Source: an uncultured Porphyromonadaceae bacterium (lineage in GTDB: Bacteria; Bacteroidota; Bacteroidia; Bacteroidales; Muribaculaceae). From it: a stretch of 64,000 nucleotides of DNA. Each line of letters starts with the position of its first letter. The first letter of the stretch is position 1. Both the position numbers and the translations under genes were made by a program. The notes under the pieces are model-generated. The model ran no database searches, was not told where the DNA came from, and worked only from the letters and a program-made list of their open reading frames with translations. The stretch covers positions 13,795-77,794 of the forward strand of contig CAMWXJ010000005.1 in the NCBI GenBank assembly GCA_947178215.1, read 5' to 3'. This document shows, one piece after another, positions 7,188-64,000 of the stretch.

Positions 7188-8213
7188 ATGAATGTAGCAA
7201 TCGTCGGCGCTTCGGGCGCCGTGGGCCAGGAGTTCCTCAGAGTTCTTGACCAGCAAAATTTCCCCTTAACCTCACTACGCCTTTTCGGCTCCAAGCGTAG
7301 CGCCGGCCGTAAGTACTCCTTTCGCGGCAAAGAAATCGAGGTGGAGGAGCTAACACACGATCCCGAACTTTTCCGCGGCATCGACATTGCCTTTACATCG
7401 GCAGGGGCCGGCACCTCACGCGAGTTCGCCGACAACATCACCCGCCATGGCGCCATAATGATTGACAATTCAAGCGCGTTCCGTATGGACAAAGACGTGC
7501 CCCTTGTGGTGCCCGAAGTAAACGGCGACGACGCATTCGACACACCGCGCAACATCATAGCCAACCCCAACTGCACAACAATCCTCATGTTGGTAGTGTT
7601 GAAGCCTATCAACGACCTGTCGCCCGTCACCAACGTGCATGTGGCGTCATACCAGGCCGCAAGCGGCGCCGGAGCAACAGCCATGGCCGAGCTGGAAGCG
7701 CAGTACGGCCAGATTTCGCGCGGCGAGGAAGTAGTCGTTGAAAAGTTTGCCTACCAGCTTGCCGACAACGTGATACCCCACATCGACGTGTTCCTCGACA
7801 ACGACTATACCAAGGAGGAGATGAAGATGTTTCACGAGACAAAGAAAATCATGCACGCTCCCGACCTCAACGTGTCGGCCACATGCGTGCGCGTACCGGT
7901 GATGCGCGCCCACTCCGAAGCCGTGTGGATCCGCACCGAGAAGCCCGTGTCGCCCGCCGAAGCACGCGCCGCCCTTGAAAAAGCACCCGGCGTGGTGGTC
8001 ATCGACGAGCCGGCCGAAAAGAAGTATCCCATGCCGCTCGACGCCGCAGGCGCCGACCCCGTGTTCGTGGGCCGCATACGCGAAGATATAGCCGACCCCA
8101 ACGGCCTCACCCTTTGGCTCGTAGGCGACCAGATAAAGAAGGGCGCGGCTCTCAATGCAGTGCAGATAGCTCAGTATCTCATCGCCCACGGCAAGAAGTT
8201 TGCCAACTCATAA
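7188..8213 (+). CDS. asd: Aspartate-semialdehyde dehydrogenase
   Basis: [39 protein letters not shown] (catalytic Cys), [36 protein letters not shown]. Confidence 0.97.
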
Positions 8214-8232
8214 ACACAACACCTCGGAATAA

Positions 8233-8262
8233 GCGGAGAGGCGGCACACGTCGCCTCCCCGC
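8233..8262 (+). terminator. GC hairpin after asd
   Basis: GCGGAGAGGCGGC-ACAC-GTCGCCTCCCCGC imperfect stem; no U-tract. Confidence 0.35.
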
Positions 8263-8283
8263 GCTCAGAGGCTACAACAGGCA

Positions 8284-10473
8284 ATGACTTTAGCCCTCGC
8301 CATACACGCAACGCAACCGCTGGTCACGTCGCCGGTGCCAATCTTCCTGATGGTACTGGCTATCATCCTGCTTGTTCCTCTGCTGCTCAACCGCCTCAAA
8401 ATTCCCTCGATAATAGGCTTCATTGTCGCGGGCGTGATAGTAGGGCCCTACGGGCTCAACTGGCTCGCCCGCGATATGAGTTTCGAAGTGTTTGGTCAGG
8501 TGGGCATCCTCTACCTCATGTTTCTCGCGGGTCTTGAAATAGACCTCTTCAACCTACGCAAGAACCTGAAAAAAGGAGTGGTGTTTGGCCTGCTCACCTT
8601 TGCCGTGCCGCTTGTGCTCGGCACCGTGTCGGCGCTCGCTGCCCTCGACCTCAGCTTCCTCGCGGCTCTGCTGCTTGCATCGATGTTTGCCGCGCACACG
8701 CTCATAGGCTACCCGATAGTGGCGCGTTTCGGCCTCACCAAAAATCCGGCGGTAGTGATAGCCGTGGCGGGCACAATCTTCACCGTACTCGGCTCGCTGC
8801 TCGTGCTCGCCGGAGTAATGGGAGTGGTGGAGAGCGGACACTTCTCCGTTCTCGACATGCTGAGGCTACTCGGCTCACTCGCAGTCTACTCCATAGCCGT
8901 AGCGTGGCTTTACCCCAAAATAACACGCTGGTTTTTCAGGCATTACACCGACGGCATCCTGCAATTCGTCTACATCCTTGCCATGACATTTCTCGCGGCT
9001 CAGGCCGCAGTATGGATAGGTCTCGAAGGCGTTTTCGGCGCGTTCTATGCCGGTATAGTGCTTGGGCGCTACGTACCGGCGCGCTCCACCCTTATGGGGC
9101 GCCTCGAATTTGTGGGCAACGCGCTTTTCATCCCCTACTTCCTCATCGGCGTGGGCATGCTCATCAACGTCAAGGTACTCACCACGTCGTGGAGCACGGT
9201 ATATGTCGCTGCGGTAATGTCGGCCACAGCCATGACATTCAAGTGGATAGCGGCCTATATCACCCAGCGCATCTATCACCTGAGCGGCCCCGACCGTTCC
9301 ATGCTCTATCAGCTGTCAAATGCCCACACCGCCGTAGCGCTCGCAGTGGTGATGATTGGCTTCTCGACCGGCATTTTCGGTGAAGAGATACTCAACGGCA
9401 CCGTGGTGATGATACTCGTCACCTGCACCGTAAGCTCGATAGGCGTGGGCCGGGCCGCTTCGCGCATCAAGCTACAACAGCTCGAACGCGAGGAGCTGAC
9501 CGTGGAGCCGGCCGACAATGCCGACAAGCCTGTCAACACGCTGATACCGATAGCCAACCCCGCCACAGCCAAGGAGCTTGTGAGCCTCGCCATACTCATG
9601 CGCGGTGAGAAGTCGGCACCCGGCTCGCTCTATGCCCTCCACGTGCGCACCGACAACAGCCCTTCATCGCGCTCAATATCGCGCAACTCGCTCGACGTAG
9701 CCCGCCGCGTAGCCGCCTCAGTCGAGGCCACGGTGCAGCCGATAGAGCGCTACGACCTCAATTTCGTCACCGGTACCATCAACGTCATCGAGGAGCGCGA
9801 CATATCGCAGGTCATCATCGGCCTCCATCGCCGCACCCAGTTCATCGACTCGTTCTTCGGAGAAAAGCTGAGCCAGATGCTCAAAGCCACAAGCCTTATG
9901 GTGGTGATTACACGCCTGTTTGTACCCGCCGCCACACTCATGCGCATCATCGTGGCAGTCCCCGAAAAGGCGCAGTTTGAGGTGGGCTTCACCAAATGGG
10001 TGCGCGCCCTGGGCAATCTCACCGCACAGATAGGCTGCCCCATTGTGTTCTGCTGCTACGACGACACACACCGCGCCATAGAGACCGTGATGCAGATTTA
10101 CCGCTACGACATCAACCGCAGCTACCGCACCATAGAGTCGTACGACGACTTTATACTGCTCGCCAACAAGGTGATGCCCGACGACCTCTTCGTCAACGTC
10201 ACCGCGCGCCGCGGCTCCATATCGTTTACCTCCGACATGGACACACTCCCCGACTTCCTCAGCCACAACTTCGCCGCCAACAACCTCATGGTAATCTACC
10301 CCGAACAAAGCGCCAACGCCGCAGCAGCCGATGTGGCCACACTTGCCGACCAGATGCTCGCCGATATCACCGTGGCACCCACGCCGATATGGCTGCGCCT
10401 GCGCGGCTGGGCACGCTCGGCGGCCGACCGCCTCAGCGGACGCCGCCGCACACACGACCGTCTTGACCTCTGA
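8284..10473 (+). CDS. Cation:proton antiporter (CPA2 / Na+/H+ exchanger) with USP-like C-terminal region
   Basis: About 12-13 hydrophobic segments, GILYLMFLAGLEID, EGVFGAFYAG, FIPYFLIGVGMLIN; soluble tail beginning TLIPIANPAT. Confidence 0.85.
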   Translation: MTLALAIHATQPLVTSPVPIFLMVLAIILLVPLLLNRLKIPSIIGFIVAGVIVGPYGLNWLARDMSFEVFGQVGILYLMFLAGLEIDLFNLRKNLKKGVVFGLLTFAVPLVLGTVSALAALDLSFLAALLLASMFAAHTLIGYPIVARFGLTKNPAVVIAVAGTIFTVLGSLLVLAGVMGVVESGHFSVLDMLRLLGSLAVYSIAVAWLYPKITRWFFRHYTDGILQFVYILAMTFLAAQAAVWIGLEGVFGAFYAGIVLGRYVPARSTLMGRLEFVGNALFIPYFLIGVGMLINVKVLTTSWSTVYVAAVMSATAMTFKWIAAYITQRIYHLSGPDRSMLYQLSNAHTAVALAVVMIGFSTGIFGEEILNGTVVMILVTCTVSSIGVGRAASRIKLQQLEREELTVEPADNADKPVNTLIPIANPATAKELVSLAILMRGEKSAPGSLYALHVRTDNSPSSRSISRNSLDVARRVAASVEATVQPIERYDLNFVTGTINVIEERDISQVIIGLHRRTQFIDSFFGEKLSQMLKATSLMVVITRLFVPAATLMRIIVAVPEKAQFEVGFTKWVRALGNLTAQIGCPIVFCCYDDTHRAIETVMQIYRYDINRSYRTIESYDDFILLANKVMPDDLFVNVTARRGSISFTSDMDTLPDFLSHNFAANNLMVIYPEQSANAAAADVATLADQMLADITVAPTPIWLRLRGWARSAADRLSGRRRTHDRLDL

Positions 10474-34517: not shown

Positions 34518-37500
34518 ATGCTATCGGGCGCCACTTTTTTAGTGAGCCGTTTCATTATCACCCACATAAACCGTCTTATCAAGTGCTTGCCACCCCTCCG
34601 GCCGGGGGTTGGGGGCACTGTGATTCTGCTTATGATGATGTGCGGCATCGCAGCCATGGCCCAGTCAGTGCTACCGCTCCCCACCTTCATAGGGCCGCCC
34701 CCGGTAAGCCTCGGCTCCAACAGCCTCACGGCCGGGGCCGACAGCATCATGCTCCCGTTCCCGATACGCCAGGCCTTTCCGCAGACCTACGAGGATATGA
34801 TTGCCGACGAGTTTGCCGCCGACCTCGACAACCCAAAAAACATACGCACGGTAGTGGAATATGACCCCTCGACCGGGTGCTATCTGCTGAGCACCAAGCT
34901 TGGCGACACCACCGTCTACACCCCCATACTCCTCACTCCGGCGCAATACAACGCCTGGCAGACCCGCAAAGAAATGGGCGCATATTACCGGCGTCGCAAC
35001 TCCGCGTTTCTCACCGGCGACGATGACGGTGCCGGCCGCCAGCCGTTCAACGTGCTCGACATGAGCTTCGCACTTGGCCCCCTCGAAAAGATTTTCGGTC
35101 CGGGAGGACTGGCGCTGCGCACACAGGGCTCGGTGCAGATTGACATGGGCATCAAGAGCAATTTCACCGACAACCCGGCGCTGTCGCTCACCTCGCGGCG
35201 AAAGACATATTTCGATTTCGACCAGAAAATTCAGGCCAACGTGCAGGCATCGGTAGGCGACCGCCTCAACTTCAACCTCAACTACAACACCGACGCCACA
35301 TTCGCTTTCGACTCCAAGAACCTGAAACTGCAATATGAGGGCAAGGAAGACGACATAGTGAAGAGCATAGAAGCGGGCAACGTCAGCCTCACTACCGGCT
35401 CGTCGCTCATACGCGGCTCGGCGGCGCTGTTTGGCGTCAAGTCTAAACTGCAATTCGGCAAGCTCACCGCAACGGCACTTGTGAGCCAGCAGAACTCCGT
35501 CACCCGGTCAGTCAACACCAAAGGCGGCGTGCAGACGACACCTTTCTCGATTAATGCCGACAACTATCAGGCCAACAGCTATTTCTTTCTCTCGCAATGG
35601 TTCCGCGACAACTACGACAGCTTTGCGGCGCGCCTGCCCTACGTTAGCTCAGGCGTGCAGATAACACGCATCGAGGTATGGGTCACCAACAAGAACAGCA
35701 CCTACAATCAAAGCCGCAACCTCGTGGCATTCATGGACCTCGGCGAAGCGTCGCACCTCGCGTCAGACTACTGGGTGCCCGACCATGCACTGCTCAATCC
35801 TGCCAACCGCAGCAACAATCTGCTCGACGTAATCAAGAGCGACTATCCCGGCGCCCGCAACATAAACACCGTGACACAGGCCCTCGCACCGCTCGCGGCA
35901 TTCGGCATCGAGGGTGGCCGCGCCTTTGAAAAGGTTGAGAGCGCCCGCCTGCTGTCGGCCAACGAATATACCCTCAACACCACTCTCGGCTACATATCGC
36001 TACGAAACCGCCTCAACGCCGACCAGGTACTCGCCGTTGCTTTTGAGTACACCTACCGAGGCCAGGTGTATCAGGTGGGCGAGTTCTCGGCCGACATCAC
36101 TTCTACCGACCAGTCGCTCTATGTCAAGATGCTCAAAAGCACCACACAGGAGCCGCGGCTGCCCATGTGGCGCCTAATGATGAAAAACGTGTATCCGCTC
36201 GGAGCCACCAACATCCAGCGCAACAACTTCAAGCTCAACATCAAATATCTATCCGACACCACGGGGACGGAGATAAGCTACCTCCCGGTGACAGGGCTCT
36301 ACGACAAGACGCTGCTTCAAGTCATGAACCTCGACCGCCTCGACTCCAACCAAGAAAGCAACTCCGACGGCTTTTTCGACTTCATCGAGGGCTACACCAT
36401 TGACGCCGACCGCGGCATGATTATCTTCCCTGTGGCCGAACCGTTCGGCTCGCATCTCGCCAAGGCCATCGGCAATCCGGCTATCGCCGGGAAATATACC
36501 TACACCGAGCTTTACGACTCCACGCTGACCGTGGCGCGACAGTATGCCGACAAGAACAAGTTCATGCTCACGGGCGAGTATCAGGCAAGCTCAGGCAGCC
36601 GCATATCGCTCGGGGCTTACAATGTGCCTCGCGGCTCGGTGGTGGTAATGGCCGGAGGCGTGCGCCTCACCGAAAACAGCGACTACACCGTAGACTATGC
36701 CATGGGCTATGTCACCATCACCAACCAGAGTATTCTCGACTCGGGGCAAAACGTGTCGGTTACACTTGAAGACCAGAGCGACCTCTTCGCCACACAGCGC
36801 AAGAGCCTCGTAGGCCTCGACCTCAACTATGCTTTCAACAGAAATTTCAATCTCGGCGCAACACTCCTCCACTACGGCGAGAAAGCTCTCATCGAAAAAG
36901 TCAACATAGGCGACGAGACCGTCAACAACACCATGCTCGGCGCCAACTTCGGCTACTCCACCGAGTTCCTGTGGCTCACCAGTCTGCTCAACAAGATACC
37001 TACGGTCAACGCTACCGCACCGTCTCGCATTGCCCTCCAAGGCGAGATAGCGCGCCTCATACCGGCGAGGCAGCGCACCGGAAGCAACAAAGGCAGCTCA
37101 TATATCGACGACTTCGAGACGGCGCAGCGAGGGCTCGACCTCCGCAGCCCCTACAACTGGTTTCTCGCGTCAACGCCCTACGACCCGTCGGGCGATGCAC
37201 TCTTCCCCGAAGCGGCGCTGAGCAACAACGTCGCCTACGGACGCAACCGCGCCCTGCTCAACTGGTACTACATCGACCGCCTATTCACCAACCGCAACTC
37301 ATCGCTCGCACCGGGATATATCAAAAGCGACCTCAAACAGCTCTCCAACCCCTATGTGCGCGAGGTCAAGACCTACGAGATATTTCCCGGCCGCCAACAG
37401 ACCTATGGCGAAAGCAACATAATACAGACCCTCAATCTCAGCTTCTACCCCACGGAGCGCGGACCATACAACCTCGACGCCACGGATATTGACGACGAAG

Positions 37501-40500
37501 GCAATCTGCTCAACCCCGAGAAACGATGGGGAGGCATCATGCGCCGCCTCGACGTGACCGACTTCGAGTCGACCAACATCGAGTATATCCAGTTCTGGAT
37601 GATGGACCCGTTTCTCGACCCCGACAACCCAAACCGCGAGGGTGGCGACCTGTATATCAACCTCGGCGAAATATCGGAGGATATACTCAAAGACGGATTG
37701 AAGACCTATGAGAACGGCAACCCCGTAGACGGCAATAACCAATATATGCGCGAGACGGTGTGGGGACGCACGAGCTCGCAGAACTCCCTCACTTACGCGT
37801 TCGATAACGCCAACTCCGCGCGCCTGATTCAGGACACCGGACTCGACGGCCTGCTCAACGCCGACGAGTTCAATTTCAGCTCTTACGCCGACTATCTCTC
37901 ACGCCTGCGCTCGCGACTCTCCCCGGCGGCGACAGAGCGAATGCTCGCCGACGCATTCTCGCCGCTCAATGACCCCGCCGGCGACAACTACCACTTTTAT
38001 CGCGGTTACGACTACGACGAACAGCGACTGTCGATACTGGAACGCTACAAGCGCTACAATGGCGTGGAGGGCAACTCGCTCTCGCCCGAGGATGCCGGTG
38101 AGCCGCTCTACCAGAGCTCGCGCTCTCTGCCCGACGTTGAGGACATCAACCAGGACAATACCCTCAACGAATACGAGCGATATTTCCAATACCGCATATC
38201 TATCCGCCCGGAGGACCTCGAAGTAGGCCGCAACTATGTGACCGACAAGCAGACATCGCTCGTCTACACCCCCGACGGCCAGACTCCCGAAGTGACATGG
38301 TACCAATTCAAGATACCACTTGAAGAGTTCGAGAAAGCCGTCGGCTCGATAAGCGACTTCTCGACCGTGAGGTTCATGCGTATGTTCATGACCGGCTTCC
38401 GGAAGACCACACACCTCCGCTTCGCCACACTCGAACTGGTGGAGGGCGACTGGCGCACCTACGACTTCAATCTCAACAACCGCGGCGACGCTCCGGCCGA
38501 GGGGCAGCTCGACGTTTCAGTCGTAAACATCGAGGAGAATTCTTCGCGCCAACCCGTCAACTATCTCCTACCCCCGGGCGTCACCCGCATATCCGACCCG
38601 TCGCAGAGCCAGATAGTACTTGAAAACGAGCAGTCGATGTCGATGAAAGTAACAGGACTCCAGGCCGGCGACGCGCGAGGAGTGTACCGCAACACGCGCC
38701 AGGACCTGCGCAACTACAAGCGGCTACAAATGTGGACCCACGCCGAAGCACTCATCGACAACACCACATTTCTCAAATCGGGTGAGCTGTCGATATTCAT
38801 CCGTATAGGCTCCGACGTCAAAAACAATTTCTACGAGTACGAGATTCCGCTCACGCTCACTCCACCGTGGAGCGGAGCGCGCTATCCCGACACCTCCGAG
38901 GGGCGCGCAATCGTATGGCCGGCCGACAATTTCATGGACCTGAACCTACAAAACCTCGTCGACCTTAAAATCGAACGCAACCGCGCCCGTCGCGCCGAAG
39001 AGCAGGGTGTGGGCTACGGTATACTCTTCACCGCCCGCGACCCTGAACACCCGCGCAACACCATGGGCGTAATGGGCAACCCCACTCTCGGCGACATACG
39101 CGTGATGCTGATAGGCATACGCAACAACAGCTCGACCGTAAAAGACGGCACTGTGTGGGTCAACGAGCTCAAAGTGACAGAGTTTGACAGCGAGGGCGGT
39201 TGGGCGGCCAAGGGGTCGGCCAATCTTGCTGTCAGCGACATAGCCACCTTAAACCTCGCCGGGCATTATGAGTCGACCGGTTTCGGGGGTGTGGATCAGG
39301 GGCTCAATCAGCGACGCCTCGACGACTACTCGCGCTACGACATGGCGTTTCAGGTCGACCTCGGGCGCTTCCTGCCCCCGGCCTCGAAGATGCACATACC
39401 GGTGTTTTATTCCTACTCCAAGGAGACCACCACCCCCAAGTATAATCCGCTCGACACCGACGTAAGGCTCAAAGATGCACTCGACGCCGTGGAGACCCAA
39501 GCCGAACGCGACTCAATCAGCGGCTTTGCCGTAGAGCGCGCCACCACGCAGAATTTCTCTATCTCCAATCTCCGTTCCGACGTGCGCAGCAAGAATCCCA
39601 TGCCGTGGGATCCGGCCAACTTCGGCGCTTCGTTCTCGTTCTCCAAACTCAGCAAAAGCAATCCCACCACCGAATACGAGAACAGCAACGACTACCGCGG
39701 GTCGTTGCTCTACACCTACAACCCCTATTTCAAGCCGGCCAAGCCCTTTGCGTTTGTCAAGAGTAAGAACAGGAATCTCGCGTTCATACGCGACTGGCAG
39801 CTCAACTGGCTACCCACCTCAATCAGCTTCAACACATATATCAGCCGCTTTTATTACGAACAGCAGATACGCTCGGAAGTCGACGAGATGTTCCGGCTGC
39901 CGGTGTCGGTGAGCAAAAACTTCCTGTGGGACCGCCAGCTCAACATCACATGGTCGCTCACCAAGACCCTCAATTTCACTTTCATGTCCAACACGTCGGC
40001 ACGCATCGACGAGCCGGTCGGGGCTGTCAACCGAAAGCTCTTCCCCGACAAGTACCGCGAGTGGAAAGACACCGTGATGCAGAGCATACTCCACCTCGGT
40101 ACCCCGTGGTCCTACAATCAGACCGCTACCGCGACATACACCGCGCCATTCGCCAGGATACCCGCACTCGACTTCATCAACGGCTCGCTCAACTACAACT
40201 CCACCTACCGCTGGGACCGCGGCGCCACGGTCGACGGCGTGGATATGGGCAACACTATCTCAAATCAGACCACCTATGGCGCCGACGGCACTCTCAACTT
40301 CGAAAATATCTACAACAAGGTGCCGTGGCTCAAAGAGGTCAACGGGCGATTCACAACGTCGAAGCGCAACAATACACGCGAGCGCAAGGCGCGACGCATG
40401 GAACGCAACATGGCTCTGCTGCCCGACACGTCCATAACCTTACGCCACAATCTGCGCACCCGCAAGATACGTGTCACCGCCACCGATCCTGCCGACCCGT

Positions 40501-42062
40501 CGCGCAAGCCCGTGCGAGTGCGTACCCGCGTCATAGACCAGAACAATGTTGAGGTGCTCGACACCGGCAGCCGCACACTTAAATTTACGGTTGTCGAGGT
40601 GCTGAAAGAGAAGCGCACACTGCTCGGCGAGATAGGACAGTATGCGGCGCGCGTTGCCATGTCGCCGCGTCGCGTGGCGGTGCGCTACCGCTCCACACGG
40701 TCGCTCTCGCTACCCCTCTTCATCCCCGACATAGGCGACATATTCGGACAGGGGCGCGACAACGGTCCCCTCGCTCCCGGCCTCGGCTTTGCATTTGGCT
40801 TCTACGGAGACAACTATGTGGCCCGCGCCAAGGAGCGGGGCTGGCTCATGACCGACGACGGCCAGACCACCCCGGCCAACCTGTCGCGCACATCGGAGCT
40901 AAACATTGAGCTTAACCTCGAACCGATACCCGGCTTGAAAATTCAGCTCACCACCAACCGCACCGACAACCGCACCAGCCAGGTACAGTTTATGTTCGAC
41001 AATATGCCTACGGCCTATGCCGGATCGTTTACCATGACGCATGTGGCGATAGGCACCGCGCTCCGCGGCTCTACCGCCGAGACAGGCTACCGGTCCGACG
41101 CTTTCGACCGGCTCATAGCCAACATCCCCGTCATTGCCGGCCGCATAGAAAACAGTTATGCCGGCACCACCTATCCCACCGGCGGCTTCATGGAGGGCAA
41201 CATACACGCAGGCATGCCATATGACCCCAAGGTGGGCACAGTGTCGCGCACCGGCTCCGACGTGCTCATCCCCGCTTTCCTGTCGGCCTACACCGGCACC
41301 AACGCGGCACGCCAGTGGCTCAATCCGTTCCCGTCGTTCGGCGCGGCGCGTCCCAACTGGCGCGTCACCTACGACGGCTTCATCAACCTCGGAAACATGC
41401 GCAACATCTTCAAGAGCCTCACCGTAACCCATGCCTACCAATGCACCTACACCGTGGGCTCCTACTCGTCGTATCTCAACTGGGTGGGCATCGACGGCAG
41501 CGACACACGCGGATTCACCCTCGACGAGCTCACCGGCGAGCCTATACCCTCGTCGCCGTTCAATATCTCGTCGGTTGCCATTACCGAACGCTTCGCCCCG
41601 CTCATAGGCGCGTCGGCGACACTCAATAACGGCATGACCGTCAACGCCGAGTGGCGCGACCAGCGCACCCTCACCCTCAACACCTCGGCCGGACAGGTAG
41701 TCGAGGCATCATCGCGCGGAATCACCTGCGGCCTCGGATACAAGATTGTCGACTTCGGCACCGTGCTGAGGCTGCCACGCCAACGCCGGACAGCTGTGAG
41801 CAACGACCTCAACATCACCGGCGACCTATCCTATGCCCTCAACAGCGCCCTCATACGACGCATAGAGAGCAACTACACCCAGGCCACCTCAGGCACCCGC
41901 ACCATACACTTCAATCTGGCGGCCAAATACCAGATGAGTCGCCGCCTCAACATAGGAGCTTATCTCGAACATCAGATTAACATCCCCGTGGTAAGCTCCA
42001 ACTCCTACCCCACTTCATCGACCGCTTTCGGTCTTAGTTTCAACCTCTCCCTGTCACGTTAA
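34518..42062 (+). CDS. sprA: Type IX secretion system translocon SprA/Sov
   Basis: 2514 aa. FDFDQKIQANV, EDDIVKSIEAGNVS, WRLMMKNVY, WGGIMRRL, DGTVWVNEL, C-terminal FGLSFNLSLSR. Signal cleavage AMA-Q; exact start uncertain. Confidence 0.93.
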   Translation: MLSGATFLVSRFIITHINRLIKCLPPLRPGVGGTVILLMMMCGIAAMAQSVLPLPTFIGPPPVSLGSNSLTAGADSIMLPFPIRQAFPQTYEDMIADEFAADLDNPKNIRTVVEYDPSTGCYLLSTKLGDTTVYTPILLTPAQYNAWQTRKEMGAYYRRRNSAFLTGDDDGAGRQPFNVLDMSFALGPLEKIFGPGGLALRTQGSVQIDMGIKSNFTDNPALSLTSRRKTYFDFDQKIQANVQASVGDRLNFNLNYNTDATFAFDSKNLKLQYEGKEDDIVKSIEAGNVSLTTGSSLIRGSAALFGVKSKLQFGKLTATALVSQQNSVTRSVNTKGGVQTTPFSINADNYQANSYFFLSQWFRDNYDSFAARLPYVSSGVQITRIEVWVTNKNSTYNQSRNLVAFMDLGEASHLASDYWVPDHALLNPANRSNNLLDVIKSDYPGARNINTVTQALAPLAAFGIEGGRAFEKVESARLLSANEYTLNTTLGYISLRNRLNADQVLAVAFEYTYRGQVYQVGEFSADITSTDQSLYVKMLKSTTQEPRLPMWRLMMKNVYPLGATNIQRNNFKLNIKYLSDTTGTEISYLPVTGLYDKTLLQVMNLDRLDSNQESNSDGFFDFIEGYTIDADRGMIIFPVAEPFGSHLAKAIGNPAIAGKYTYTELYDSTLTVARQYADKNKFMLTGEYQASSGSRISLGAYNVPRGSVVVMAGGVRLTENSDYTVDYAMGYVTITNQSILDSGQNVSVTLEDQSDLFATQRKSLVGLDLNYAFNRNFNLGATLLHYGEKALIEKVNIGDETVNNTMLGANFGYSTEFLWLTSLLNKIPTVNATAPSRIALQGEIARLIPARQRTGSNKGSSYIDDFETAQRGLDLRSPYNWFLASTPYDPSGDALFPEAALSNNVAYGRNRALLNWYYIDRLFTNRNSSLAPGYIKSDLKQLSNPYVREVKTYEIFPGRQQTYGESNIIQTLNLSFYPTERGPYNLDATDIDDEGNLLNPEKRWGGIMRRLDVTDFESTNIEYIQFWMMDPFLDPDNPNREGGDLYINLGEISEDILKDGLKTYENGNPVDGNNQYMRETVWGRTSSQNSLTYAFDNANSARLIQDTGLDGLLNADEFNFSSYADYLSRLRSRLSPAATERMLADAFSPLNDPAGDNYHFYRGYDYDEQRLSILERYKRYNGVEGNSLSPEDAGEPLYQSSRSLPDVEDINQDNTLNEYERYFQYRISIRPEDLEVGRNYVTDKQTSLVYTPDGQTPEVTWYQFKIPLEEFEKAVGSISDFSTVRFMRMFMTGFRKTTHLRFATLELVEGDWRTYDFNLNNRGDAPAEGQLDVSVVNIEENSSRQPVNYLLPPGVTRISDPSQSQIVLENEQSMSMKVTGLQAGDARGVYRNTRQDLRNYKRLQMWTHAEALIDNTTFLKSGELSIFIRIGSDVKNNFYEYEIPLTLTPPWSGARYPDTSEGRAIVWPADNFMDLNLQNLVDLKIERNRARRAEEQGVGYGILFTARDPEHPRNTMGVMGNPTLGDIRVMLIGIRNNSSTVKDGTVWVNELKVTEFDSEGGWAAKGSANLAVSDIATLNLAGHYESTGFGGVDQGLNQRRLDDYSRYDMAFQVDLGRFLPPASKMHIPVFYSYSKETTTPKYNPLDTDVRLKDALDAVETQAERDSISGFAVERATTQNFSISNLRSDVRSKNPMPWDPANFGASFSFSKLSKSNPTTEYENSNDYRGSLLYTYNPYFKPAKPFAFVKSKNRNLAFIRDWQLNWLPTSISFNTYISRFYYEQQIRSEVDEMFRLPVSVSKNFLWDRQLNITWSLTKTLNFTFMSNTSARIDEPVGAVNRKLFPDKYREWKDTVMQSILHLGTPWSYNQTATATYTAPFARIPALDFINGSLNYNSTYRWDRGATVDGVDMGNTISNQTTYGADGTLNFENIYNKVPWLKEVNGRFTTSKRNNTRERKARRMERNMALLPDTSITLRHNLRTRKIRVTATDPADPSRKPVRVRTRVIDQNNVEVLDTGSRTLKFTVVEVLKEKRTLLGEIGQYAARVAMSPRRVAVRYRSTRSLSLPLFIPDIGDIFGQGRDNGPLAPGLGFAFGFYGDNYVARAKERGWLMTDDGQTTPANLSRTSELNIELNLEPIPGLKIQLTTNRTDNRTSQVQFMFDNMPTAYAGSFTMTHVAIGTALRGSTAETGYRSDAFDRLIANIPVIAGRIENSYAGTTYPTGGFMEGNIHAGMPYDPKVGTVSRTGSDVLIPAFLSAYTGTNAARQWLNPFPSFGAARPNWRVTYDGFINLGNMRNIFKSLTVTHAYQCTYTVGSYSSYLNWVGIDGSDTRGFTLDELTGEPIPSSPFNISSVAITERFAPLIGASATLNNGMTVNAEWRDQRTLTLNTSAGQVVEASSRGITCGLGYKIVDFGTVLRLPRQRRTAVSNDLNITGDLSYALNSALIRRIESNYTQATSGTRTIHFNLAAKYQMSRRLNIGAYLEHQINIPVVSSNSYPTSSTAFGLSFNLSLSR

Positions 42063-58642: not shown

Positions 58643-58864
58643 ATGTATTGGACACTTGAATTGGCCTCGAAGCTCGAAGACGCACCCTGGCCCGCCACCA
58701 AAGATGAGCTCATCGACTTTGCCATGCGCTCAGGCGCTCCCCTTGAAGTAATCGAAAACCTCCAGGAGATAGAAGACGAAGGCGATATCTACGAATCTAT
58801 CGAAGATATCTGGCCCGACTACCCCACCAAAGACGACTTCCTCTTCAACGAGGACGAATACTAA
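58643..58864 (+). CDS. DUF2795 family small acidic protein
   Basis: MYWTLELASKLEDAPWPATKDELIDFAMRSGAPLEVIENLQ, the highly conserved Bacteroidetes/Chlorobi sequence. Confidence 0.9.
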   Translation: MYWTLELASKLEDAPWPATKDELIDFAMRSGAPLEVIENLQEIEDEGDIYESIEDIWPDYPTKDDFLFNEDEY

Positions 58865-58894: not shown

Positions 58895-58930
58895 CAATGG
58901 CTGAGAAAATTATTCTTTTCTCAGCCATTG
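58895..58930 (+). terminator. Terminator after DUF2795; marks the core/island boundary
   Basis: 15-bp perfect stem CAATGGCTGAGAAAA / TTTTCTCAGCCATTG followed by CTGTTTT. Confidence 0.8.
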
Positions 58931-59168: not shown

Positions 59169-59176
59169 TAAATTTG
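59169..59176 (+). promoter_or_regulatory. -7 promoter element for the island operon
   Basis: TAAATTTG only 4 nt before ATG 59181. Confidence 0.55.
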
Positions 59177-59180
59177 CACC

Positions 59181-60269
59181 ATGAAAAACGAAAAGATAAA
59201 ACTTACATTAGATGACGGCAATATTGTCGATGCTCAGGCGCCGGTGATTGTGTCGGCAAGCAGGAGCACGGATATTCCGGCTTTCTATGCGGAGTGGTTT
59301 TTTGAGAGATTGAAACGTGGTTACTCTGCATGGACTAATCCGTTCAATGGTGCTACCTCGTATGTAACTTATAGCAATACCAGATTTATAGTGTTCTGGT
59401 CGAAGAATCCAAGGCCGCTCATAGAGCATCTTGACTATCTTTCAGAAAGGAATATTGGATGCTACATACAATACACTTTGAATGATTACGAAGCGGAGGG
59501 ACTGGAAAAAGGAGTGCCACCTTTGGCTCAGCGAGTTGAGACATTCAAAATGCTTGTAGACAAGTTAGGCAAAGGTCGCGTAATATGGCGGTTTGACCCT
59601 ATGATTATTACTGATAAAATAGGTATTGATGATTTAATCAATAAAGTCAGAAATATAGGTGACCAGCTTAAGGATTGCACTGAGAAACTTGTATTCAGCT
59701 TCGCTGATATAGTATCGTATCGCAAGGTCAAGGCCAATCTTGAAAAGAATGGTGTCAACTATATTGAGTGGGATGAGGCATCAATGATTGAGTTTGCCGC
59801 GAGACTTTCAGAAATGAATAAGCAGCGTGGATGGAATTTTAAACTTGCCACTTGTGGCGAGAAAATTGACATTGAGCAATATGGTATTGAACACAACCGT
59901 TGCGTAGATGACGACCTTATGATTCGATTTGCATACCACGATAAGGAATTGATGGATTTCTTGAAAGTGGATGTCAGAAAGGTTCAGCCATCTGCCCCAT
60001 CTATGTTTGAAGAGTTCGAAGACAGTCCACAGATTCCGGAAGGAGCCATAATGGTAGCATCCGATACCTATGCCATAAAGCGAAAGAATAATAAGGATAA
60101 GGGCCAACGTCAGTTCTGTGGTTGCATTATAAGTAAAGACATCGGCCAGTACAACACTTGTCCACATCTGTGTGAATACTGCTATGCAAATACGAGCAAA
60201 TATGCGGCAGTTGCTAATTGGAAGCGTCATAAATCAAATCCAAGCGGAGATAAAATTATTGGCATATGA
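59181..60269 (+). CDS. DUF1848 family protein (radical-SAM-like, C-terminal CxxxCxxC)
   Basis: IVSASRSTDIPAFYAEWF, IVFWSKNP, VIWRFDP, CGCIISKDIGQYNTCPHLCEYCYAN (C327/C331/C334). Confidence 0.88.
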   Translation: MKNEKIKLTLDDGNIVDAQAPVIVSASRSTDIPAFYAEWFFERLKRGYSAWTNPFNGATSYVTYSNTRFIVFWSKNPRPLIEHLDYLSERNIGCYIQYTLNDYEAEGLEKGVPPLAQRVETFKMLVDKLGKGRVIWRFDPMIITDKIGIDDLINKVRNIGDQLKDCTEKLVFSFADIVSYRKVKANLEKNGVNYIEWDEASMIEFAARLSEMNKQRGWNFKLATCGEKIDIEQYGIEHNRCVDDDLMIRFAYHDKELMDFLKVDVRKVQPSAPSMFEEFEDSPQIPEGAIMVASDTYAIKRKNNKDKGQRQFCGCIISKDIGQYNTCPHLCEYCYANTSKYAAVANWKRHKSNPSGDKIIGI

Positions 60270-62941
60270 CTTATCAAGAAAGAATAAGCAGCATTTGCAA
60301 CCTTACAATAGATGCAATTATAGATAATTGTAAGGCACATATACCAGCTCAGTTCCGTCATCGTCCATATGTACATCCCGAGCTTAATCATGGTTTGGAT
60401 TTACTCAAGAGCGATGAGGGCTTAGATTGCTATATTGGCGCATACGGAGAGATGCACAAGTCAAAATGCCGTGCCGCCTTACAAAATATGCCGTTCCCGC
60501 CTAAAGAGAATAGCGGATCGTTATCATTGGAAATCGTAGATTGGGGCTGTGGTCAAGGAATTGGGACGGTATGCGTAATAGACTTCCTTAAAGAAAGGGA
60601 TCTCACACAATGGCTTAAGAGAATTACGCTTATCGAACCATCGCAAGCGTCATTAGTCAGGGCTGTTGATAATGCGAAGAGAGCCACTAATAATGGCGTA
60701 CGTGTTGTACCGATTAATGAGTATCTTCCTTCGGTTTCAGATGGTAATGAAATTAGCAGTGTCTCCTATGAGCAGAATTATGTCATCCACATATTTTCCA
60801 ATATACTGGATGTAACAAATATTGATTTGGGTAAACTTGCAAAGTGTATGGCTATTCCGGGCCATACGCACTATATTCTATGCATGGGACCCTTGAATGC
60901 CAATGCATTCAGGATAGACCGGTTCAGTGAAATATTTCAGCCGGCAGAATATTTCTCAAATATCACCAGCAATAGTTATGGTCGGACTTCAGACACCAAT
61001 TATACTTTTACATGTAAGACCAAGGGCTTTGTATATAATGGCACGTCATTGGATTTATCAAAATATAACCCTCAGGAAAAAGCTCAAACTTCAGTATATG
61101 GAGAATATGATATTAATTTACAGATAAGCAACAAGCTTTTTTCATTGGAAAAAGGATGGGTATATTACAGGTTCCAAAGTATTCTTTCTCCATCTGATTT
61201 GATATTTCTTAATCCGGATTTAAACGGCACTACCCCCGATTTCGTAATAATACGACCAAATGTCGGGGTTATAGTCATTTCTGTATTTGAGGAACCATTG
61301 ACAAAGTGTAAGGTAAATGCTGATGATCATTGGTTAATAGATGTGGAAGATACGAATGGAGAAATCCGCACCATACAATCTCCTTATACAGCCCTTGAAA
61401 ATTCTCAGAATCTTATAATTGAAAACATTAAAGAGTTTACTGAGGCGGTAATAGATAATAGCCGCAATCTTTCACTTGTCAAGAAGGTTCTTATTTGTAC
61501 AAAAGGATCTCAAAAACAAGCAAAACAGATATTCGGGGATCAGCAATGGATACAAGTATATGGATCTGATTTCTTAAACACCACTAACGATTCTTCCAAT
61601 ACAGTCGCCATTCATTTTTTTGATGATTTGCGGTTCCATTATCGTTCCTCTGTTTTTGATGCGATTGTTCTTGAGCAATTAAAACAAGATTTATCTCCTG
61701 CGTGGCATTCCTACAGAGAGGGGGTTGAAGTTAAGTTGTCCACCCAACAAAAAAATCTTTCCAAAAGTGTAGCTGGTGGTCAACGAAAGATTAGTGGAGT
61801 TGCAGGCTCAGGAAAAACCCAAGTATTGGCAAACAGAGCCGTTAATGCACAAGTACGGACTGGGGGTAATATTCTGATTCTCACATTCAATATTTCATTG
61901 GTCAATTACATGAAAATGCGTCTATCGCAGGTTCGAGCTGATTTTCCATGGGATAAAATTCACATTGATTACTATCACAGATTTTTTCGCAAACATGCGA
62001 ATGCTAATAATCTTCATGTGTATTTTGAGTCATACGATGATGAGGAATTTTTTAAATCTGTTAAATCAAAGCTCCCAAAATATGATGCCATTTTGATAGA
62101 TGAGGTTCAGGACTATATGGCATCTTGGCTTCAAATAATTAGACGGAACTTTTTACAAGAAAACGGGGAGTTTGTTGTATTTGGAGATCCAAAGCAGAAT
62201 ATATACCATAGGGAAATCGATAGTCAAGGTAATATTTTACTTGGAGTTATTCCCGGTTTGTGGAATAAAGATTTGACAAAGAGCCATAGATTTTCCAATC
62301 CGTCTCTTGCCAATTTAGCGATGGAATTTCAAAGACAATTTATTGGGAATCCTGATGATATAGAAGAGGCAAATGAATCATCAAATCTGGACTCTGGCAT
62401 TCAATTTAATCTTATGCAATATCATAATGTCTCTAATGCAAGCGACTCTGTAGTATTAGCTGAAACTGTTTACTCAATATGTAAAGATTTTATTGAGGCT
62501 AACGATATAGATATTTCAGATGTAGCCATACTGGCACCTCAAACCAATTTGCTACGAGAATTGGATTATAAATATAGAGGTGAATCAGGTAAAAGAACAA
62601 CAACTACTTTTGTCTCTAAAGAAGGCATTGATAGGATATCACGTCAGAAGAGTCAAGCATCATACGGATACAAACAAGATCTGGAGAGGCTTGAAAAGGT
62701 ATTGAAGAATCGTTTTACGATAGTAACTCGTAATCTAAAAATATCGACGATTCAAAGCTTTAAAGGATGGGAGGCACCAACTATCATATGTATTATTCAA
62801 AATGACATATACAGTGATGAAAATATTGTAACCTCACCGGAACTTGTGTACACCGGCATCACGCGAGCAAAAGAGAACCTATTGGTAATCAATATCGGTA
62901 ACAATCAGTATCATGACTTTTTCAAATCACATCTTCAATAA
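60266..62941 (+). CDS. Fusion protein: SAM-methyltransferase-like domain + degenerate NERD/PD-(D/E)xK domain + SF1 (UvrD-like) helicase
   Basis: YIGAYGEMH and IVDWGCGQGIG (D92); PDLNGTTPDFVIIRPNVGVIVISVF (aa ~318-341); GVAGSGKT (511-518), IDEVQD (611-616), FGDPKQNIY, STIQSFKGWE, LVYTGITRAK. Confidence 0.85.
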   Translation: MTYQERISSICNLTIDAIIDNCKAHIPAQFRHRPYVHPELNHGLDLLKSDEGLDCYIGAYGEMHKSKCRAALQNMPFPPKENSGSLSLEIVDWGCGQGIGTVCVIDFLKERDLTQWLKRITLIEPSQASLVRAVDNAKRATNNGVRVVPINEYLPSVSDGNEISSVSYEQNYVIHIFSNILDVTNIDLGKLAKCMAIPGHTHYILCMGPLNANAFRIDRFSEIFQPAEYFSNITSNSYGRTSDTNYTFTCKTKGFVYNGTSLDLSKYNPQEKAQTSVYGEYDINLQISNKLFSLEKGWVYYRFQSILSPSDLIFLNPDLNGTTPDFVIIRPNVGVIVISVFEEPLTKCKVNADDHWLIDVEDTNGEIRTIQSPYTALENSQNLIIENIKEFTEAVIDNSRNLSLVKKVLICTKGSQKQAKQIFGDQQWIQVYGSDFLNTTNDSSNTVAIHFFDDLRFHYRSSVFDAIVLEQLKQDLSPAWHSYREGVEVKLSTQQKNLSKSVAGGQRKISGVAGSGKTQVLANRAVNAQVRTGGNILILTFNISLVNYMKMRLSQVRADFPWDKIHIDYYHRFFRKHANANNLHVYFESYDDEEFFKSVKSKLPKYDAILIDEVQDYMASWLQIIRRNFLQENGEFVVFGDPKQNIYHREIDSQGNILLGVIPGLWNKDLTKSHRFSNPSLANLAMEFQRQFIGNPDDIEEANESSNLDSGIQFNLMQYHNVSNASDSVVLAETVYSICKDFIEANDIDISDVAILAPQTNLLRELDYKYRGESGKRTTTTFVSKEGIDRISRQKSQASYGYKQDLERLEKVLKNRFTIVTRNLKISTIQSFKGWEAPTIICIIQNDIYSDENIVTSPELVYTGITRAKENLLVINIGNNQYHDFFKSHLQ

Positions 62942-62943
62942 TT

Positions 62944-63252
62944 ATGATGAACGAAATCTTTACAAGGCAAGAAAAATATGCTATTGTTTCAGTCTTGATT
63001 AAAATTATGGAGGCTGATGGTTTCATTGATCCTCATGAGGTAGAATTCTTGGATGGTGTTCTTGTCGACCTACACATTTCCGAACCTGAGATGGAAATTA
63101 TCCAAGAATATGATCTCGGTCAAGATGTCGCTATAATCAAGCAATTAAGTATTGAAAAATTAGACGCTGCAAAACGGTTATTTATAAATATGGCTAAATG
63201 TGACGGTTTTGCAGACCCAAGAGAATTGCATATTATCAATTCCTTAATGTAA
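62944..63252 (+). CDS. TerB/DjlA-N-like small helical protein
   Basis: Two copies of the TerB-type motif: IMEADGFIDPHE and MAKCDGFADPRE. 102 aa, acidic. Confidence 0.75.
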   Translation: MMNEIFTRQEKYAIVSVLIKIMEADGFIDPHEVEFLDGVLVDLHISEPEMEIIQEYDLGQDVAIIKQLSIEKLDAAKRLFINMAKCDGFADPRELHIINSLM

Positions 63253-63280
63253 TGTATGTTTGCGTTAAATCAATTTAATT

Positions 63281-64000
63281 ATGGACGATAACAACCGGAT
63301 AATAATATATCAGAGCGAGGACGGCGAGACCCGTATTGAGGTAAAGTTTACGGGGGAGACTGTGTGGCTCTCTCAGCAACAGCTCTGTGAGCTTTATAAT
63401 ACAAGCAAAGCCAATGTGAGTGAGCATATTAAGCATATATTTGAGGATGGCGAGCTTGATGAAGAGGCAGTTGTTCGGAAATTCCGAACAACTGCTGCAG
63501 ATGGCAAATCCTACAATGTGGCTTACTATAATCTCGACATGATTATCTCTTTGGGATATCGAATCCGGTCGGTTATTGCGACGCACTTCCGCCGGTGGGC
63601 CACGGAGCGGCTTAAGGAATATATCATCAAGGGGTTCACGATAGACGATGAGCGGCTTAAGGGCAATGGCGGCGGCGCTTATTGGCGTGAGCTGCTTGAC
63701 CGTATTCGCGATATCCGTTCGTCGGAGAAAGTCATGTACCGACAGGTGCTTGACTTATACGCTACTGCTGTTGACTATGACCCACGCTCTGAGATTTCGG
63801 TTGAGTTCTTCAAGATTGTGCAGAATAAGCTTCATTTCGCCGCGCATGGCAATACTGCCGCGGAGGTGATTTTCAAACGAGCCGATGCGGATGCCCCGAT
63901 GATGGGTCTGACGTCATTCAAAGGGGACCATCCGACACTGCGCGATGCACAGATTGCAAAGAATTATCTTAGCGAGAATGAACTGAAAATTCTCAACAAT
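63281..64000 (+). CDS. rhuM: RhuM-family (virulence_RhuM) DNA-binding protein, 3'-truncated by window edge; absent from the ORF track
   Basis: My translation: MDDNNRIIIYQSEDGETRIEVKFTGETVWLSQQQLCELY...YYNLDMIISLGYRIRSVIATHFRRWATERLKEYIIKGFTIDDERLK...IRDIRSSEK...QNKLHFA...IAKNYLSENELKILNN. 240 codons with no stop. Confidence 0.9.
   Translation, partial: MDDNNRIIIYQSEDGETRIEVKFTGETVWLSQQQLCELYNTSKANVSEHIKHIFEDGELDEEAVVRKFRTTAADGKSYNVAYYNLDMIISLGYRIRSVIATHFRRWATERLKEYIIKGFTIDDERLKGNGGGAYWRELLDRIRDIRSSEKVMYRQVLDLYATAVDYDPRSEISVEFFKIVQNKLHFAAHGNTAAEVIFKRADADAPMMGLTSFKGDHPTLRDAQIAKNYLSENELKILNN

Follow-up and report, generated by a model that had tools for sequence, protein, structure and literature searches.

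What do three genes do that stand tightly together near the end of a 64,000-nt stretch of DNA from an uncultured Porphyromonadaceae bacterium (GenBank assembly GCA_947178215.1, contig CAMWXJ010000005.1, positions 13,795 to 77,794; hereafter, the window), and do they work as one system? According to the list of open reading frames (ORFs), the + strand encodes at this place a DUF1848 protein (59181-60269, 362 aa), a fusion of a methyltransferase (MTase)-like domain, a NERD-type domain, and a superfamily 1 (SF1) helicase (60266-62941, 891 aa), and a TerB protein (62944-63252, 102 aa). The first two ORFs share 4 nt (ATGA, 60266-60269) and the last two are separated by a 2-nt spacer (62942-62943), which agrees with the tight coupling described in an initial annotation of the window. 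That annotation had further proposed that two S-adenosylmethionine (SAM)-using modules, the helicase, and TerB form one system. The linkage of the genes stood up to comparison with other genomes; the conserved unit, however, turned out to be the pair formed by DUF1848 and the MTase-like domain, the helicase being swappable and TerB optional.

The evidence for linkage comes from a scan of one genome per species of the Genome Taxonomy Database (GTDB), which recovered 76 loci, i.e., 43 with a MTase-containing fusion and 33 with a NERD-helicase only. DUF1848 was encoded upstream and on the same strand in 42 of the 43 fusion loci (immediately adjacent in 41), and of the 41 loci not cut by a contig end, 32 had a TerB-like gene immediately 3′ of the fusion. 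The gaps between the cassette genes were mostly between -4 and +5 nt, and clustering of all neighbors revealed no fourth conserved gene. The operon thus recurs in other genomes, as the proposal of a single system predicts. The fusion loci belonged mostly to Bacteroidales of many genera, plus metagenome-assembled genomes (MAGs) labeled Helicobacter and Clostridiales. Homologues of the fusion number more than 1000, the best 120 of which were mostly full length down to approximately 43% identity. No adjacent DUF1848 or TerB gene was present in the 33 NERD-helicase-only loci, which are spread over many phyla; one of them (L076) has a DUF1848 gene approximately 2.7 kb upstream. When identity to the proteins of the window was compared, DUF1848 ranked above the fusion at 41 of 42 loci (medians, 63% versus 43%), and a slower DUF1848 is the usual contrast of a catalytic with a target-facing component.

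A few loci depart from this layout. The MAG contig labeled Helicobacter (L051:6913-10055) carries DUF1848 and a 700-aa fusion without the NERD segment, flanked by ORFs that resemble IDH (by a Pfam match) and dnaN and gyrB (both by eye); this locus represents either a transfer outside Bacteroidota or a mis-binned contig. A P-loop ATPase of approximately 400 aa stands in place of or after DUF1848 at L032:6561-7772 and L076:5291-6475, and a 365-aa ORF lies between DUF1848 and the fusion at L033:6767-7864. These inserts are possibly selfish genes in or beside the cassette. The Pfam family AAA_14 matched two unidentified proteins of the flanks.

The MTase-like domain is not confined to this fusion. 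An exhaustive HMMER search with residues 1-290 returned 1110 representative proteins at an E value of ≤1e-3, in which the domain, placed at the N or the C terminus, was fused, besides the UvrD type of approximately 880 aa, to SF1B (AAA_11/AAA_12) helicases and to SF2 DEAD/Helicase_C helicases, one of the latter with a restriction-endonuclease-like insert. Other fusions joined it to BspA-type leucine-rich repeats (LRR_5), to a Fib_succ/WG-repeat protein, and to HEPN in a HEPN-MTase-SF1B arrangement. Seven of these alternative architectures were looked up on their contigs, and DUF1848 was encoded directly upstream (overlapping or within approximately 10 nt) in five of them. In the sixth (L080), a 76-aa DUF1848 fragment lies approximately 1.4 kb upstream with a 409-aa ORF in between, and the contig of the seventh was too short to inform on DUF1848.

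A similar pairing was found in a distant DUF1848 clade of a type that looks stand-alone, such as the one on a Planktothrix plasmid. Among the 79 metagenomic loci sampled from this clade, 62 had enough upstream sequence, and 24 of these 62 carried an adjacent gene of approximately 290 aa with class I MTase motifs, usually upstream and with a 4-nt overlap. These partners escaped the profile of the window domain, which gave one weak match, and were detected by profile-profile comparison: hhalign aligned the distant MTase-like gene with the N-terminal domain of the window fusion over 174 columns that take in the helix preceding motif I (probability, 80%; E value, 1.5e-5). Other genes upstream of DUF1848 in this clade encode a MTase-RecQ-type helicase (L146) and an Rsm22-like MTase (L112). 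In addition, DUF1848 has been reported to accompany UG25, a class 1 UG/Abi reverse transcriptase (RT) whose N terminus carries a methyltransferase domain (Mestre et al. 2022, PMC9226505); beyond this role, no mention of DUF1848 was found in the literature searched. Because the 42 of 43 fusion loci, the alternative architectures, the distant clade, and UG25 all point the same way, DUF1848 and a MTase-like protein constitute a recurrent functional dyad, to which helicase, RT, LRR, and repeat modules are interchangeable additions.

Further genes were seen beside members of this pair. An AlkB-type 2-oxoglutarate (2OG)-Fe(II) oxygenase overlaps the start of DUF1848 in a Bacteroidales locus (L007:6362-6976, +; Pfam, 1.9e-35; PADLOC CARF_2OG, 6e-58), and an annotated AlkB adjoins the DUF1848/MTase-like pair on the Planktothrix plasmid (L081:7888-8571, -). 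These neighbors hint at nucleic-acid alkylation as a theme. In Roseburia, DUF1848 has Sir2 and an ADP-ribose hydrolase as neighbors, and in Parabacteroides it lies near a non-specific endonuclease. A Trypsin_2 protein of approximately 200 aa adjoins the cassette downstream in L039, L031, L033, and L038 and upstream in L028, L053, and L085. In L039 (10953-13400), the gene after Trypsin_2 encodes a paralogue of the MTase-like domain joined to BspA-type LRRs, and in L034 the paralogue is present without Trypsin_2; together, Trypsin_2 and this paralogue may form a second, related system.

Given that DUF1848 is the constant partner, we analyzed its predicted features. The window protein matches PF08902 over its full length (2.6e-88) and the PADLOC model RTasDUF1848 (6.8e-37), and the family is widespread, archaea included. 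The initial annotation had pointed to a radical-SAM-like cysteine cluster, and the C-terminal CX3CX2C motif (C327-PHL-C331-EY-C334, followed by Tyr) is indeed invariant in the alignment, across 31 to 100% identity. Four further cysteines (C225, C241, C313, and C315) are invariant in members down to 31% identity, and the seven residues together could accommodate a radical-SAM-type cluster and an additional, auxiliary one. In the AlphaFold2 (AF2) model (predicted template modeling score, 0.81), beta and alpha elements alternate to form a barrel, and confidence is low solely around the Cys loop. Its top Foldseek match was GDGT-MAS, a radical SAM enzyme, at an E value of 1e-3 and a template modeling score of approximately 0.25, with LipA at rank 41; generic TIM barrels scored similarly to radical-SAM structures, all matches were weak, and this search for structural relatives assigned no function. 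Of the traits that define the radical SAM superfamily, DUF1848 clearly shows the Cys motif alone. We consequently regard it as a putative radical-SAM-like Fe-S enzyme on the basis of this motif and the weak fold match.

The partner domain of DUF1848, at residues 1-290 of the fusion (60266-61135, +), had been proposed to be a methyltransferase, and structure prediction confirmed this for a domain that Pfam does not see. The AF2 model has a Rossmann-like seven-strand fold with a mean predicted local distance difference test score of 89.8, and Foldseek matched it to TehB, NTMT1, and others (E value, 1.5e-5; probability, 1.00). Among 74 matches to Protein Data Bank (PDB) structures at an E value of ≤1e-3, the best 50 were almost all methyltransferases, most with a probability of 1.00, and the modeled domain has the class I methyltransferase fold. 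Sequence searches were less telling: no Pfam methyltransferase family was matched at threshold, no PADLOC model matched the isolated domain, single-sequence and profile searches of the PDB with the N-terminal 480 residues of the fusion gave no significant match, and NCBIfam yielded nothing useful for any of the proteins. The domain is nonetheless marked by invariant motifs, namely, VDWGCGQGIG, LIEPS, HIFSNILD, and CMGPLNAN. Within motif I (VDWGCGQGIG), D92, G94, G96, and G98 are invariant, and E124 of LIEPS is kept at at least 90%. A helical extension at the N terminus is also conserved, with HPELNHG and AYGEMH..KC. Both putative SAM-using modules of the initial annotation have thus kept their diagnostic motifs, including the G94/G96 pair that it had singled out.

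The remainder of the fusion comprises a NERD-type PD-(D/E)XK domain (residues ~291-480; 61136-61705, +) and a UvrD-like SF1 helicase (residues ~481-891; 61706-62941, +). The PADLOC model C3a187 ("NERD+UvrD") spans residues 293-886 (9.2e-44), and the helicase is also recognized by Pfam (UvrD-helicase, 1.1e-13; AAA_19, UvrD_C_2, and Viral_helicase1). Its motifs are invariant in the alignments, i.e., Walker A GVAGSGKT with the previously highlighted K517, DEVQD (D612/E613), FGDPKQN (Q644), and TRAKENL (R867). The NERD region aligns with relatives that match Pfam NERD, such as L076 (8.5e-6), and had been suspected of being degenerate. In the window, the catalytic E-x-K has become S-V-F (ISVFEE), and every aligned MTase-fused member has another triplet in place of E-V-K, mostly S/N-V-F and in a few N-V-C, D-V-C, or D-I-F, so that none retains the lysine; most stand-alone NERD-helicase relatives, in contrast, keep IEVKDW. 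The NERD domain of the fusion is therefore predicted to be catalytically dead and probably serves as a nucleic-acid-binding or structural module. Inactivation of the nuclease falls in precisely the lineage that acquired the MTase domain together with DUF1848, and both the helicase and the two SAM-type sites are under strong constraint. Since the nuclease is dead solely in the MTase-fused family, the sequences suggest that the effector role has moved to the SAM enzymes.

The third gene (62944-63252, +) encodes a minimal TerB-fold protein. Its assignment to TerB holds, with a Pfam score above the gathering cut-off (3.5e-7; 30.9 versus 24.4 bits), and a profile built from 21 family members matches the TerB-fold structures 2H5N (5.6e-9) and 2OU3, a COG3793 tellurite-resistance protein (0.003). 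The protein has two (A/C)DG..DP.E half-motifs, and the duplicated ADG..P.E and DG....E motifs are invariant. In PADLOC, it matched no family at an E value of ≤0.1. TerB is the commonest third gene, is absent from approximately one-fifth of the assessable fusion loci, and some loci have no third gene at all; it is an optional accessory third module. At L023:10639-11616 and L053:10612-11589 (both +), its place is taken by a PDDEXK_13/REase-ARP nuclease (3.6e-78) that overlaps the stop codon of the fusion, and an active nuclease can therefore come in trans as the third module. The variants with a SF2 helicase have a coiled-coil protein as the third gene, followed in one case by a VWA protein.

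Does this set correspond to a system that already has a name? The initial annotation recognized none, and none emerged here. PADLOC v2.0.0 contains no system of this composition; it hits components only (RTasDUF1848, C3a187, and partial GajB and Nhi helicase cores), the first two of which it holds as candidate models. No named equivalent was found in the literature, although work elsewhere or newer DefenseFinder models could exist. The closest likeness is to UG25, in which DUF1848 is likewise paired with an N-terminal MTase fused to a nucleic-acid enzyme and for which the RTasDUF1848 match speaks. The window locus differs in having no reverse transcriptase (Pfam finds no RT domain in the three ORFs) and, as its partner, a dead NERD domain with a SF1 helicase; the MTase domain of UG25 is likened to that of the window by description alone. 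A MTase-RT is paired with a UvrD-like helicase in the related UG35 (PMC9226505). The stand-alone NERD-UvrD proteins of many phyla, captured by C3a187, share the NERD-helicase body of the fusion, whereas most of them keep E-V-K, lack the MTase-like domain, and have neither DUF1848 nor TerB next to them.

The remaining candidates are further away. The match to the Nhi model extends over no more than 89 residues of the window helicase core (2.1e-6), and the window nuclease is dead; for Gabija, the GajB match is a partial helicase core (E value, 3e-11 and weaker) and the operon contains no GajA-like ORF. Shango, which consists of a TerB protein, an ATPase, and a helicase, resembles the window locus in that a TerB protein is encoded with a helicase in a context of the defense-island type. 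However, the window TerB matches no Shango component model, the operon lacks a separate ATPase gene, the helicase is of the UvrD/GajB type with no Shango model among the best 25 of its 29 matches, and TerB of this type is dispensable in approximately one-fifth of the loci. Hma, DISARM, and BREX combine SAM-dependent methyltransferase and helicase functions and employ bona fide DNA methyltransferases as proteins separate from their helicases, in mobile islands. In the window, the MTase-like domain instead represents a different, unannotated family, shares one polypeptide with the helicase, and has DUF1848 as its obligate partner. From restriction-modification (R-M) enzymes, the fusion differs by having no DNA-methylase Pfam match, a lost nuclease motif, and structural neighbors that are not DNA methyltransferases. 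A putative radical-SAM enzyme within a multigene defense candidate recalls the prokaryotic viperins and OpnA of Ophion (bioRxiv 10.1101/2025.09.30.679545). DUF1848 is not detectably related to them, has no Radical_SAM Pfam match, and bears its Cys motif at the C terminus, and the partners of OpnA are a PHP phosphatase and a phosphoribosyltransferase rather than a MTase-helicase (bioRxiv 10.1101/2025.09.30.679545). Dionysus and Ophion, the TerB and radical-SAM systems described in the same work, were rejected as matches owing to their different gene sets. The window locus therefore falls outside Shango, Gabija, Nhi, DRT-UG25, and R-M.

The setting of the locus bears the marks of recent transfer. 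The cassette together with the adjoining RhuM gene is 95.5% identical at the DNA level to L001 from a related MAG, compared with 83.6% for the adjacent core gene DUF2795. The GC content at approximately 59.0 to 63.5 kb is 0.34 to 0.42 versus 0.56 to 0.62 at 53.5 to 57.5 kb in the preceding tyrS/valS region, in keeping with the AT-rich island of the initial annotation. This difference in identity and the GC contrast indicate that the island was horizontally acquired. Its left edge is marked by an intrinsic-terminator-like hairpin with a 15-bp stem and a T tail (58895-58930, +; terminator scan), at which the drop in GC content starts, and which lies 3′ of the last core gene, encoding a 73-aa DUF2795 protein (58643-58864, +; Pfam, 2.7e-17). 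Directly 3′ of the operon lies the RhuM-family gene (63281-64000, +; PF13310, 6.2e-81; PADLOC phage-defense candidate PDC-S05, 7e-125), which runs past the window end. As this gene belongs to the same 95.5%-identical block shared with L001, the island continues past the window end, and its right border lies outside the window.

As for expression signals, TAnnTTTG is the Bacteroidota -7 promoter consensus, and the promoter-like motif mentioned in the initial annotation, TAAATTTG (59169-59176, +), fits it and is a candidate operon promoter, a lone copy being weak evidence. It ends 4 nt before the DUF1848 ATG, so close that a transcript from it would be leaderless or nearly so. The consensus occurs 27 times in the window versus 17.0 ± 4.1 expected (1 of 100 shuffles reached 27), several copies stand shortly 5′ of start codons, and the RhuM gene has a copy of its own at 63255-63262. 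A sigma-70 promoter scan was disregarded since that model is irrelevant to Bacteroidota. No Rfam family was found in 58.4 to 64 kb and the tRNA scan found no tRNA in the whole window; consequently, no RNA gene or tRNA integration site was placed. A very large ORF (34518-42062, +; 2514 aa) lies 5′ of the island.

Across loci, the flanks of the cassette contain relaxases, DDE transposases, RhuM/PDC-S05, HsdR-like, REase-ARP, AAA_15/AAA_21, Schlafen/AlbA_2, Fic, and NsnB-like proteins, and ordinary metabolic genes are found there too. Overall, 129 flanking proteins matched 143 different Pfam families, and the PADLOC scan of the flanking genes was dominated by redundant RhuM models. A scan of IMG/VR detected the fusion on 2 viral contigs only. 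A phage-encoded (counter-defense) origin was accordingly rejected: the fusion is a gene of cells and of their mobile elements, not of phages. GenBank matches labeled as phage were unverified fecal contigs or stand-alone DUF1848 genes. One, an 11.6-kb fecal contig (L085; GenBank MT836254, "UNVERIFIED: Bacteriophage sp."), carries a trypsin-like gene, DUF1848, and the fusion; no obvious phage genes were seen on it, and it may be a bacterial or mobile-element fragment. Another, the 735-kb megaphage genome of an "uncultured phage" (L087; GenBank LR756501), encodes a 255-aa DUF1848 homologue (7995-8762; 38.5% identity), and by eye the surrounding ORFs resemble sugar-modification and FkbM-type methyltransferase genes.

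How might such a cassette act? The reading that we favor, without granting it quite an even chance, is that of a mobile conflict or defense operon in which the helicase would target covalent modification or damage by the DUF1848/MTase pair to the nucleic acid of an invader, most likely a phage or mobile element. The dead NERD domain and the UvrD-like helicase would recognize nucleic acid, translocate along it, and bring the chemistry of the pair to it. The catalytic core would then consist of two SAM-dependent enzymes, i.e., the DUF1848 barrel with its CX3CX2C motif and a probable second Fe-S cluster, and the class I MTase-like domain, and the outcome would be a covalent modification or lesion that stops replication or expression of the invader. 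TerB would be a dispensable addition that may sense a metal or ligand or act as a regulator. Within this reading, we infer the defense role, the radical-SAM activity, nucleic acid as the substrate, and the nature of the modification. Several results weigh against it. DUF1848 matches PF08902 alone in Pfam and not Radical_SAM (PF04055), has no sequence homologue in the PDB (nothing below an E value of 0.3 in phmmer and profile searches), finds its best barrel match at the weak values given above, and carries its Cys motif at the C terminus instead of the usual N-terminal position of radical-SAM enzymes. By structure, the MTase-like domain comes closest to methyltransferases that act on small molecules and proteins rather than on DNA, and its fusions to LRR and WG repeats leave room for a substrate other than nucleic acid. 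In addition, DUF1848 can stand alone or beside AlkB, Sir2/macro, and endonuclease genes, which fits repair or reversal as well as an effector. Finally, the defense context is qualitative, with many loci also flanked by housekeeping genes, and the defense-island score of UG25 was inconclusive (Mestre et al., PMC9226505).

The main rival turns the pair into a poison and its antidote, in the manner of DarT/DarG: the MTase-helicase would alkylate DNA or RNA harmfully, DUF1848 would reverse this on the host, and an imbalance would result in defense or addiction. This is unlikely in our judgment, yet it accounts for a good deal, namely, an antitoxin-first layout in which DUF1848 is encoded first and translationally coupled to the fusion, the slower evolution of DUF1848, the rarity of MTase-X proteins without it, and its occurrence alone or near reversal and repair enzymes (AlkB in L007 and Planktothrix, and Sir2 with ADP-ribose hydrolase in Roseburia) or near the endonuclease in Parabacteroides. 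One DUF1848 cluster even bears the label "DNA repair photolyase" in one source, but the label is automatic and unverified, the AlkB association comes from two loci, and we know of no radical-SAM nucleic-acid demethylase. Some of the same neighbors could be read as a DNA-repair or stress-tolerance cassette, in which DUF1848 would be a direct-reversal lyase, like spore photoproduct lyase, aided by the helicase and TerB. UvrD-type helicases act in repair, the two loci with AlkB neighbors and the wide distribution of DUF1848, which reaches the archaea, would agree with such a role, and the TerB family has been tied to stress responses (bioRxiv 10.1101/2025.09.30.679545). The cassette is nevertheless patchily distributed, is foreign in GC content, and bears signs of recent transfer, it shows no conserved synteny with repair genes, and its swappable partners, including LRR, HEPN, RT, and restriction-type nucleases, are what conflict systems typically have, unlike housekeeping repair, which makes this explanation improbable.

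Equally improbable is action on small molecules or nucleotides, whether by depletion of SAM, by production of a modified nucleotide as viperin does, or by a SAM-derived signal, with the helicase, LRR, and repeat modules as sensors. The closest structures to the MTase-like domain (TehB and NTMT1) are in line with this, the LRR and WG fusions resemble sensor-effector immune proteins, and radical-SAM enzymes are known in defense, namely, the prokaryotic viperins, whose substrates are nucleotides, and OpnA of Ophion (PMC9226505; bioRxiv 10.1101/2025.09.30.679545). Most partners of the pair are, however, nucleic-acid enzymes (three helicase superfamilies, the RecQ type, RT, HEPN, and dead NERD), and the operon has no conserved gene for a signal-receptor effector. 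Single-polypeptide Type I-SP and Type IIG enzymes unite a MTase, a PD-(D/E)XK nuclease, and a helicase, and the architecture of the fusion recalls them, as does the frequency of R-M and RhuM genes among its neighbors; the MTase would then mark host DNA while the helicase and DUF1848 attack unmarked DNA. We deem this very improbable, as the fusion has no Pfam DNA-methylase match, no target-recognition domain, a dead nuclease motif, and structural neighbors other than DNA MTases. That the genes are merely adjacent by chance and do not work together is hardly credible and is refuted by the comparative data, with DUF1848 upstream at near-zero gaps in 42 of 43 loci and in five of seven other architectures, and a second clade with its own MTase-like partner. 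The repair, small-molecule, and R-M-like explanations fit less well than helicase-targeted modification of invader nucleic acid and the poison-antidote arrangement.

A broader claim would be that the DUF1848/MTase pair is an unrecognized ancient effector that combines radical and polar SAM chemistry on nucleic acid and represents a new mechanistic class of immunity, which we consider somewhat unlikely. If it were true, the pair would introduce a novel modification or lesion into bases or the backbone, or both introduce and remove one, and would have been plugged repeatedly into three helicase superfamilies, RT, LRR, WG repeats, and HEPN as sensors. What the comparison of loci provides already is a firm, testable partner for DUF1848, a large and widespread family with no solved structure and almost no literature, in the form of a distinct SAM-methyltransferase-like domain. 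The two behave as a portable module that has been combined with three helicase superfamilies, repeat-type sensors, and, from the literature, a defense-related RT. If this module is a repair or reversal set, it would offer anaerobes a new oxygen-independent route of nucleic-acid repair. If it serves immunity as an effector, the known mechanisms of defense would be joined by SAM-radical chemistry on nucleic acid, DUF1848 would gain its first function, UG25 would be explained, and the module would bear on how phages and hosts interact in gut Bacteroidales, in which the cassette is frequent.

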